Shown one piece after another: positions 58,375 to 62,551 of a DNA stretch of 64,000 nt. Positions within the stretch are counted from its first letter, which is position 1; every line of letters starts with the position of its first letter. The translations under genes were made by a program, and so were the position numbers. The notes under the pieces are model-generated. The model ran no database searches. It was given only the letters and a program-made list of their open reading frames with translations, and was not told where the DNA came from. The stretch is from NCBI GenBank assembly GCA_000004695.1, contig CM000151.3:1632001-1696000 (forward strand), read 5' to 3'. Source of the DNA: Dictyostelium discoideum (Eukaryota).

Positions 58375-60183
58375 ATGTTTTTAGAAACTAAAAATAATAA
58401 TAATAATAATTTAAATAATAAATTAATTAGAAATAAAATAAAAAAAGATAAAATGGTATCACAAGGTAAAAATAAATTAATTCAAAAATATAGTTCAGAT
58501 TTTTCATATTATTTTAATAATCAAGAATTATCAGATATAATAATACAAGTTTCAGAGAATGGATATTTAGATGAAGATGTATTAACAATGAAACCAATTC
58601 CAATAAATATAAAAAACGATAAAAAACCAACATTTGAAGAAATTATTGAATTAATAAATCAAAGAAATAATTGTTTAAATAATAGTAATAAAATAAAAAA
58701 TGATGAAACAAATAGAATCGATTATTTTTATACACATAAATTTGTATTATCAGCACGTTCACCAGTATTTATGAAAATGTTATCATGTCAAATGATGGAA
58801 TCGAATTCAGTTATAATTACATCACATTTTCCAAGGTCAATATTTTATATATTATTAAAGTTTTTATATAGTGGAAAGGTTGAAATGAATGCTACAAACG
58901 TGTTGGAGGTATTGGCGATTGCTGATTATTATCAATTAGAGGATTTAAAGGATTTTTGTGGTAAATATTCATTACAAACTTGTATAGATGGTGAATTGGA
59001 TATTTGTAGGGTATTGTATGCTTCCGAACAGTATGGACTTGAAAAGATAAAGCAATTATGTTTAGATTATATTTCACAGCATTCAATGGATATATTACTG
59101 TCGTCACCAAATTGGCATTTATTAAGTGAAGAGAATTTAATAGAGATTTTAGAACAAGACAATCTTCGTGTACCAGAGGTGGAAATCTTTGATTCTTTAG
59201 TTCGTTGGGCAGAGAAGCAGTATAGTATACTATTGGATTTAGATCCTTCCCTAGGTGATTCAATCAATAAACCTGATTTTCTAAAGAAAAAACTATCAAA
59301 ACCATTGAAATCAATTAGATTTGCAAGTATGTTTCCTTATCAACTTTCATCACATATTGAAAAGACAAATTTGGTAGATAAGGAGATCCTATATGAAGCT
59401 TATCGTTATTGTGCAGCTCAAATTCCAACTAGTATTAATAGTTCAAGTTGTGAATTAAGACAAGGTGTAAAGGAGTTTACATTTCAATTCAATGGTGATA
59501 CAAATGGTGTTTTATATTATTTTGGTACTTGTGAAGATATGGAAGACTATGAAAGTCCTGTCACGAGAAAGGTTGTAACCGTAACAAGCTCCACCATGAG
59601 TATTGGTTATCCTCATCCATTCGTTGGTAGACAATCGACCAATATGTACACTGATAAGGAAGAGAATAGTTTTTTCTGTGTGGATTTAGGTGTTAAACAT
59701 GTACTATGTCCAACTTATTACTCGTTGAGATATGGTGGTGATTCTCAAGGTTCAATCTATGCAGCTCCAAAGAATTGGCAATTGTTGGGTAGTTTAGATG
59801 GTCAAGAATGGACACTCCTTAGAGATCACTCAAATGATCTCTCCTTAAAGGATGGTTATGGTATCGCTGGTTGGGATGTTAAAAGTATTCATTCCTATCG
59901 TTATTTAAAAATCCTTCAAACTGGTCCAAATCAACGTGATGGTAATGAACTTTGTTTATGTTGTTTCGAAGTTTATGGTCGTTTAGTCTCTTTAGAAGAT
60001 GATAATAACAATACAACATGTTCAAGTTTAACAGATGGTGAAAGTGATGATGATGAAATGAAAAATACAACTTCACATATTGACGATGATGATAGTGACA
60101 ATGAAGATGTCAATGACAATAACAATGGCGATGATAGTGATGAAACTAATAATGAAAACGATGATGATATGGATGATAATTAA
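58375..60183 (+). CDS. BTB/POZ + BACK domain protein with a C-terminal beta-sandwich (PHR or galactose-binding-like) domain and an acidic D/E/N tail
   Basis: The 602-aa ORF has a BTB domain (DIIIQVSENGY...FYTHKFVLSARSPVFMKMLSCQMMESNSVIITSHFPRSIFYILLKFLYSGKVEMNATNVLEVLAIADYYQLEDLKDFC). A BACK-like region follows (YASEQYGLEKIKQLCLDYISQH...LLSEENLIEILEQDNLRVPEVEIFDSLVRWAEKQ). The C-terminal domain is ...NWQLLGSLDGQEWTLLRDHSN...YRYLKILQTGPNQRDGNELCLCCFEVYG. Upstream exons are not excluded. Confidence 0.65.
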   Translation: MFLETKNNNNNNLNNKLIRNKIKKDKMVSQGKNKLIQKYSSDFSYYFNNQELSDIIIQVSENGYLDEDVLTMKPIPINIKNDKKPTFEEIIELINQRNNCLNNSNKIKNDETNRIDYFYTHKFVLSARSPVFMKMLSCQMMESNSVIITSHFPRSIFYILLKFLYSGKVEMNATNVLEVLAIADYYQLEDLKDFCGKYSLQTCIDGELDICRVLYASEQYGLEKIKQLCLDYISQHSMDILLSSPNWHLLSEENLIEILEQDNLRVPEVEIFDSLVRWAEKQYSILLDLDPSLGDSINKPDFLKKKLSKPLKSIRFASMFPYQLSSHIEKTNLVDKEILYEAYRYCAAQIPTSINSSSCELRQGVKEFTFQFNGDTNGVLYYFGTCEDMEDYESPVTRKVVTVTSSTMSIGYPHPFVGRQSTNMYTDKEENSFFCVDLGVKHVLCPTYYSLRYGGDSQGSIYAAPKNWQLLGSLDGQEWTLLRDHSNDLSLKDGYGIAGWDVKSIHSYRYLKILQTGPNQRDGNELCLCCFEVYGRLVSLEDDNNNTTCSSLTDGESDDDEMKNTTSHIDDDDSDNEDVNDNNNGDDSDETNNENDDDMDDN

Positions 60184-60403: not shown

Positions 60404-60694
60404 GTTACATTTTTCTTTTTTTTATTTTTAAATCGATAAAAAAAAAAAAAAAAAAAAAAACAAAAGCCAAAAAAAAAAAAGAAAACTAGAGATGTTCATT
60501 CATAGTTTTTTTCTTTTTTTTTTTTTCTTTTTTTTTTTTTTTGGTTTTACAAAAAAAAAATAAAAAAATAAATAACTTGAAATAAAGAATATTCCAAGAT
60601 ATATATATATATATTTTTTACAAAATTATTTTCCAATTTTTTTTATTTGTTTTTTTTTTTTTTTTTTCTTATTTACAATTTATTTTTTTTTTTC

Positions 60695-60746
60695 CTAATT
60701 TCCTTTTTCAGTATTATTGCTAACAACATTATTACCAACACTATTG

Positions 60747-60777
<31 letters not shown>

Positions 60778-61016
60778 CAGTTTTTAAACTTTCTTTATAT
60801 TTTTGTCTTTGAATATCCATCAATACTCCTTGTCTCATTTTCTATAAAAATTAATGAATTAGATTTGGGATTATTATATTAAAAGTGAATTTTTTTTTTT
60901 TTTTAAGTTATATTTACCTTTCTTGCATCTTTTTGGTCATAGTGAATAAAATATATAAATCCGCCTACTGCTAAAACGGATGTTACCAATGCAATTTTGG
61001 CTTTCTTTGAACTCAT
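60695..61016 (-). CDS. PET117-like cytochrome c oxidase assembly micro-protein, about 81 aa, two exons. Model: join(61016..60918,60841..60695). It is not present in the ORF track
   Basis: Exon 1 is MSSKKAKIALVTSVLAVGGFIYFIHYDQKDARK (single TM) with a GTAAAT donor. The acceptor is TTTTATAG at 60842 and exon 2 is KMRQGVLMDIQRQKYKESLKTDNNNN...NTEKGN*. The pattern resembles human PET117 (...VKQQWDQQRLRDGVIRDIERQ...). It is phase 0 and the intron is 76 nt. Confidence 0.5.
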
Positions 61017-61460
61017 TTTCGTAAATTGATGTTTATTTGGGAAATGAAAATATTATAAAAAAAAAAAAAAAAAAATCAAAAAAAATCAAAAAATTAAAAA
61101 AAAAAAAAAAAAAAAAAAAGAAATTTTAAATTGACCAATTGCTTAAGATTATTGTTATAAAAAATTTTAGTTCATGTTTTATATATTTAAATTTCAAATT
61201 TAAAGAAAAAAAAAAATATATAAATTTATTTAACCCTTAAAATTAAAAATTCTTATGATTATTATAATTATTATCATGGTTTATTTGGATATTAATTAAT
61301 TGTTTTTATATAGATTTAAAATAAAAAAAAAATATATTTTTTATTTTTTTATTTTTTTTTTTTTTAATCTTTTATTCCTTTTTAAGATAAATTTTTTTTA
61401 TTTGGAAGATATTTTTTTTTTTTTATTTTTTTGAGTTTTTTGTAAAATTTAATTAATTTA

Positions 61461-61499
<39 letters not shown>

Positions 61500-61683
61500 C
61501 CACTAAAACCACATAAATTGACGATTACCAATTTATATAAATTTTATTCATATTATTAAACAATTCTTTACATGTAAAAACAAAAACAATAAACTTTTTT
61601 TTTTTTTTTTTATATAAAACATATTATGATAAAAAAAATAATTAAATAATTAAAAAATAATTAAAAAAAAAAAAAAGAATAGA

Positions 61684-62052
61684 ATGGACCTATTTTTAAA
61701 AAACAATACATTATTTTCAGACTCTACAAGTAATACAACGATTTTTGGTAGTGAAACAACAAATCGTTATGAGCTTCAAGATAATGCTTTAGTTGTCTCA
61801 TTATTAATCAATACAGGTCTTTCTCTTTTAATACTTTTAGCATTTTGTATTTTAAGAAAAAGGTTTAAACTATTTTATCAGTATAGAGCTGAAAAACGTC
61901 AAAATGGTATCATAAGAGCACCTGGTACTGGTTTCATTTCTTGGATAAAAGATACTTATAAATATAACTCTGAAAATATTATTGAAATTTCTGGTTTAGT
62001 AAGTAAAAATAAATACATACACACATATGTCGACCCAAGCCCGATCACTAAC

Positions 62053-62131
<79 letters not shown>

Positions 62132-62551
62132 TATTATTTATAGGATAGTTATTTTTATTTAAGAAATGTAAAAACAAATTTTAAAATATTATTAACATTG
62201 ATGATAATTGGATGGGTAATGTTATTTCCAACAAATTCAAAAGGTAGATATAATGAAAATAGAAAAGTTCAACAAGATGGTACATTACCAGATCAAGTGA
62301 TTGGATTATCAACATTGTCAATGGGTAATATTGAAAGAGGTTCAAATTTATTATGGGTTCATTTTCTATTTGTATTTATCGTTACTTTGGTTGTAATGAT
62401 ATTTACATTTATTGATTATAAAGATTATGCTGATAAGAGAATTCAATATAGAAAATCAAAAAGATTATTGAACTATACAATTCTCTTAAGAGATATACCT
62501 GTAAATTTATTTTCAAAACAATGTTTAAAAGAATATTTTCAACAATTTTTA

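Follow-up and report, generated by a model that had tools for sequence, protein, structure and literature searches.

The window, a stretch of 64,000 nucleotides of Dictyostelium discoideum DNA, carries a small gene of two coding exons on its minus strand between positions 60695 and 61016. Exon 1 (60918..61016) opens with an ATG at 61016, continues for 32 further codons and ends at 60918. Its 99 nt encode residues 1-33, MSSKKAKIALVTSVLAVGGFIYFIHYDQKDARK, which comprise a basic stretch at the N-terminus, a hydrophobic helix and, from the PET117 motif, H25..Q28. A phase-0 intron of 76 nt follows (60842..60917, minus strand), with GT..AG borders reading GTAAAT at the 5' end and TATAG at the 3' end (TTTTATAG). 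Exon 2 (60695..60841) adds 48 codons and a TAG stop codon. It supplies residues 34-81, KMRQGVLMDIQRQKYKESLK, with a translation that begins KMRQGVLMDIQRQKYKESLKTD and runs into an Asn-rich tail before the stop. Joined in phase 0 across 60918/60841, the exons give a product of 81 aa. The start codon stands in the context ACGAAAATG, and an in-frame stop lies 12 codons upstream.

Three segments can be marked on the spliced product. Codons 8-24 (IALVTSVLAVGGFIYFI; 60945..60995) form a hydrophobic segment, the presumed inner-membrane anchor. Codons 25-46 (60803..60944, split by the intron) hold the PET117 signature, H25-x2-Q28-x4-K-K-M-R-x-G38-V-x2-D42-I-x-R45-Q. Codons 54-81 (60698..60781) make up the Asn-rich low-complexity tail, whose length and sequence vary among species. 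On the same strand, an AATAAA at 60679..60684, 11 nt past the stop codon, is a candidate polyadenylation signal, as is a second AATAAA hexamer at 60642..60647. The GC content is 33% in exon 1 and 21% in exon 2, compared to 13% in the intron and 12% in the 300 nt to either side of the gene. This dip in the intron relative to the exons is the usual pattern for an AT-rich genome, and the low value of exon 2 is explained by its AAT repeats.

Both neighbouring genes lie on the plus strand. The BTB/BACK gene (58375..60183) encodes 602 aa, with matches of 72 bits to BTB and 45 bits to BACK, and is arranged tail to tail with the small gene at a stop-to-stop distance of 511 bp. The preliminary description had placed it about 500 bp away on the opposite strand, in agreement with these positions. 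No Pfam match at E ≤ 1e-3 was seen across the C-terminal half of the BTB/BACK protein (approximately residues 290-602), and its C-terminus is an acidic Asp/Asn-rich tail.

On the other side, a divergent upstream neighbour runs from 61684..62148 onward to the end of the window and matches RSN1_TM at 55.8 bits; from its sequence, it looks like a CSC1/OSCA-type membrane protein. By inspection, its exon 1 apparently extends to 61998, where GTAAGT comes next, and an intron would occupy approximately 61999..62143. The intron sequence includes a long (ATT)n microsatellite and closes with TTTATAG, after which the frame would resume with DSYFYLRNVK.... In this splice model, also made by inspection, the poly-Tyr tail of the gene's 154-aa open reading frame is a read-through into the intron. 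The two divergent start codons are separated by 667 bp (61017..61683). Both genes presumably have their promoter and 5' UTR in this interval, and the 300 bp closest to the small gene have a GC content of approximately 12%.

The small gene is DDB_G0272302, which we take to lie on D. discoideum chromosome 2. An identical 81-aa product of D. discoideum AX4 has already been deposited (EAL71303.1, XP_645291.1, UniProt Q559P3; UniRef100_Q559P3), and the exact sequence is present in GenBank, RefSeq, UniProt and EukProt. The preliminary description had called the gene unannotated and suggested that proteins of this kind are missed by gene finders. Neither statement holds here: the public gene model is identical to the reconstruction, and PF15786 is already listed for the deposited protein in the protein collection searched. 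The gene has been known since the release of the genome, as a model in the AX4 reference annotation, and only its descriptive name lags behind, the sources giving 'hypothetical protein' or 'Uncharacterized protein'. Other parts of the preliminary description were borne out. The two-exon structure of 33 + 48 codons with its junction at 60918/60841 was exact, matching the model deposited as XP_645291.1 / Q559P3. Each exon was correctly said to fall under a 60-aa threshold for open reading frames, with stand-alone frames of 37 and 47 aa. Raw sequence alone had thus sufficed for the correct two-exon assembly and family assignment.

The literature searched yielded no experiment on this gene in Dictyostelium. 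A full-text search for DDB_G0272302 by name found no paper, and a search for PET117 together with Dictyostelium returned only a review in which Dictyostelium is cited on account of other genes. PET117 is not mentioned in the main text of the Dictyostelium mitochondrial compendium (PMC9118663). An Acanthamoeba mitochondrial proteome paper makes no mention of PET117, PET100 or COX15, and a literature search for D. discoideum and COX15 gave nothing usable on the presence of Cox15.

To assess family membership, the 81-aa product was compared to Pfam and to large protein collections. It matched PF15786 (PET117) at 52.1 bits (gathering score 27; E = 7.7e-14). The match covers residues 6-57, and therefore crosses the exon junction, and corresponds to profile positions 2-46 of 67. 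Weak Pfam matches to rve, Vir1p and DUF2254 (E = 0.1–0.3, far under the cut-offs) were set aside as noise. When 1.84 billion representative proteins were scanned exhaustively with HMMER, 25 relatives reached E ≤ 1e-3. All of them measure 58-114 aa, a size range that includes the 81 residues of the Dictyostelium product with its single N-terminal hydrophobic helix. Five columns are near-invariant in an alignment of 27 sequences (H25, Q28, G38, D42 and R45). The window protein carries the conserved residue at each of them, with H25 and Q28 contributed by exon 1 and the other three by exon 2.

In a profile search of a named protein collection, every one of the 40 matches carried PF15786. Several of them are named for PET117: those from Daphnia galeata and Myxocyprinus asiaticus are entered as "Protein PET117 homolog, mitochondrial", and that from Conger conger as "PET117 cytochrome c oxidase chaperone". 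Among annotated proteins, the DDB_G0272302 product was the sole D. discoideum protein found by the PET117 profile search. BLASTP gave 34% identity to human PET117 over 47 residues (ungapped, E = 2e-8) and 31% identity to yeast PET117 over 52 residues (ungapped, E = 2e-7); these values serve as leads only. The Pfam score, the signature residues, the PET117-named relatives and an intron at a conserved position (see below) agree with the PET117-like identity first proposed. The sequence evidence supports the assignment to PET117 as well as the two-exon model in its exact form.

Open reading frames as short as 37 and 47 aa might be chance frames in AT-rich intergenic DNA, or the remains of a decayed pseudogene, and in either case no functional protein would be made. 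The chance expectation was assessed with an independent PET117 profile built from 22 homologues, with every dictyostelid sequence left out. The homologues had first been gathered with the window protein as query; Pfam PET117 independently accepts 26 of the 27 sequences in the alignment. All stop-to-stop pieces of the window of at least 15 aa in six frames (n=2428) were scanned against this profile. The two exon pieces ranked first and second, at 41.2 bits for exon 1 (E = 1.3e-11) and 34.1 bits for exon 2 (E = 2.2e-9), and the next-best piece in the window scored 10.2 bits. The exon pieces are adjacent and collinear, matching first one half of the profile (positions 1-33) and then the next (positions 35-65). 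Judged by these profile scores, the exon pair is far above chance. The same six-frame scan of the 64-kb window revealed no second PET117 copy.

Comparison among species gave further evidence against chance frames or a pseudogene. Across codons 1-53, three Dictyostelium species showed a nucleotide identity of 76-92% and a dN/dS of 0.08-0.13, whereas their introns were only 19-46% identical. On these sequences, purifying selection acts on the conserved core in the three species. In every species examined, PET117 retained an intact reading frame, start and stop codons and splice sites. The orthologues of D. firmibasis (RB653_010266, 69 aa), D. purpureum (DICPUDRAFT_43889, 84 aa) and Cavenderia (DFA_03198) are 94%, 77% and 55% identical to the D. 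discoideum protein over the matched region, and are likewise named hypothetical or uncharacterized by the sources. They share the position and phase of the intron but differ in the length and composition of the tail.

The intron itself is widely conserved in position. It also interrupts the gene in phase 0 after codon 33 in D. firmibasis (86 nt) and D. purpureum (68 nt). A phase-0 GT..AG intron occupies this column of the alignment in Cavenderia fasciculata (104 nt), the snail Bradybaena similaris (11.2 kb), the fishes Myxocyprinus (1360 nt) and Conger (749 nt) and the fungus Rasamsonia emersonii (80 nt). It is therefore shared by four amoebozoans, a snail, two teleost fishes and a fungus, with lengths from 68 nt to 11.2 kb. 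Its presence at one column in Amoebozoa, animals and fungi indicates that it predates the split between Amoebozoa and opisthokonts. This ancient phase-0 intron parts the membrane helix and H..Q from the R.GV..DI.RQ half of the signature. Together, the profile scores, the dN/dS values in genes with diverged introns and the conservation of intron position and phase effectively refute chance frames or a pseudogene, a reading to which we attach almost no weight. The locus is an ordinary housekeeping micro-gene; it is real and its family is correct.

The short frames raise a separate question of which product is made. The main product could be an unspliced 37-aa peptide (MSSKK...DARKVNIT*) that contains the helix only, or a 47-aa product from an ATG in exon 2. 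Both frames are present, and a retained intron reaches a stop after 4 extra codons. However, the family signature needs both exons, and the spliced product scored 89.0 bits against the non-dictyostelid PET117 profile compared to 42.4 and 32.6 bits for the parts. The phase-0 junction is also preserved in every lineage examined. An unspliced or exon-2-only main product was rejected as very improbable, and the spliced 81-aa protein is the product considered below.

Gene order around PET117 was also compared. In both D. firmibasis and D. purpureum, a BTB/BACK gene is found near the PET117 locus on the opposite strand. This synteny is a further line of support for the gene model. The PET117 and BTB/BACK genes of D. 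discoideum and D. firmibasis directly adjoin each other, tail to tail. In D. purpureum (L001:3403-4873), a 441-aa gene with a faint MFS_1 match lies between them.

The Cavenderia fasciculata model DFA_03198 (P0004; L003:3001-3550) is 114 aa long and includes a 57-residue N-terminal extension that is added through an extra upstream exon and intron. The extension is absent from every other family member, and the family-typical start corresponds to Met58 (MVSKAQIGLL...). From these sequence comparisons, the extension is probably a gene-prediction artefact.

The product is predicted to take the shape of one long helix. Exon 1 had been described as giving a single membrane helix, and a hydrophobic stretch of this kind was found: residues 8-24 are the best Kyte-Doolittle 17-mer (mean 2.31) and would serve as the membrane anchor. 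AlphaFold2, run with the family alignment, modelled one continuous helix over residues 3-63, with a pLDDT of 96-98 over residues 11-50, and the hydrophobic segment sits inside this high-confidence helix. In the model, hydrophobic residues 8-24 are followed by the conserved charged signature at residues 25-53. The pLDDT was 54-62 at residues 61-81, and no secondary structure was seen past residue 63. Tails of this Asn-rich kind are a typical feature of Dictyostelium proteins. No solved structure of a relative turned up in a profile search of PDB sequences.

Taken together, the locus is very probably the D. discoideum orthologue of PET117: a nuclear two-exon gene, DDB_G0272302, for an 81-residue mitochondrial micro-protein. 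By homology, this protein is probably a helix anchored in the inner membrane that supports Cox15 and the assembly of complex IV. By analogy with characterized relatives, we assign Dictyostelium PET117 the general role of a complex IV assembly factor with high confidence. Yeast Pet117 is found on the matrix side of the inner membrane, where it binds Cox15, is needed for stable Cox15 oligomers, and thereby ties heme a synthesis to the maturation of Cox1 (PMC7140478, PMC13213658, PMC11011759). Human PET117 is mitochondrial (PMC3334569), and a homozygous stop at codon 58 leads to isolated complex IV deficiency (PMC5429353).

If Dictyostelium PET117 works as these proteins do, the hydrophobic segment would anchor it at the mitochondrial inner membrane, with the conserved helix facing the matrix side. 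This helix would bind the heme a synthase Cox15 and stabilise Cox15 oligomers, which would allow heme a to be made and handed to newly synthesised Cox1. In the absence of PET117, cytochrome c oxidase (complex IV) assembly would be expected to fail. One source, however, treats yeast Pet117 as a matrix protein (PMC11011759), so the N-terminal helix may have a different membrane topology. Given true orthology, we lean slightly towards this specific Cox15 mechanism; the molecular role of PET117 is unsettled (PMC7657662, PMC11011759), and the mechanism may therefore not transfer.

The same gene may instead act in the human style, not through Cox15 but at the COX2 module with PET100-type factors, on late intermediates, or in the regulation of COX1 synthesis. 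Work on the human protein assigns PET117 to the COX2 module together with PET100 and MR-1S, and reports interactions with these two factors and with COX1- and COX2-module subunits (PMC7657662); one study reported that it stabilises TACO1 (PMC11011759). MR-1S, however, is described as human-specific (PMC11011759), and stabilisation of Cox15 oligomers is the best-characterised activity of the family (PMC7140478, PMC13213658). We consider a human-style role possible but doubtful, and the Cox15 mechanism is preferred over it. Dictyostelium PET117 is no nearer to yeast (31%) than to human (34%), and its sequence does not discriminate a human-type from a yeast-type role.

In D. discoideum mitochondrial DNA, COX1 and COX2 form one fused reading frame. 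Dictyostelium PET117 could conceivably act on this single fused polypeptide, which would be both the heme a acceptor of the yeast model and the COX2 module of the human model; its function would then go beyond what either model describes, although we think this improbable. If true, it would make the annotated PET117 gene a test case for reconciling the yeast and human models. D. discoideum is an established mitochondrial disease model, and PET117 is a human disease gene whose mechanism is unsettled. As a discovery, the locus has small value. The by-products of the analysis are a justified functional name, the probable mis-prediction of the Cavenderia N-terminus and an ancient conserved intron. 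For curation, "PET117 homolog, cytochrome c oxidase assembly factor" could replace the present name of DDB_G0272302 / Q559P3 and of the orthologues in other dictyostelids.

Of the known systems, S. cerevisiae Pet117 is the one from which the mechanistic model derives (PMC7140478, PMC13213658), and it has its family and N-terminal architecture in common with Dictyostelium PET117. At 107 aa the yeast protein is longer, with a different C-terminus, and it is more divergent in the conserved block, with QGPIKDAKR compared to QGVLMDIQRQ in Dictyostelium. Its interaction also involves Mss51, a yeast-specific factor (PMC11011759). Human PET117 is likewise reported to be 81 aa long and encoded by two exons (PMC5429353), a likeness in exon count; the junction position was compared in teleosts, in which PET117 genes have a phase-0 intron at the Dictyostelium column. 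The human protein also belongs to PF15786 and, as in Dictyostelium, has an N-terminal hydrophobic helix followed by H..Q....R.GV..DI(E/Q)RQ. The vertebrate and Dictyostelium proteins differ in the C-terminal third, which is charged and helix-like in vertebrates, whereas Dictyostelium has an Asn-rich low-complexity tail.
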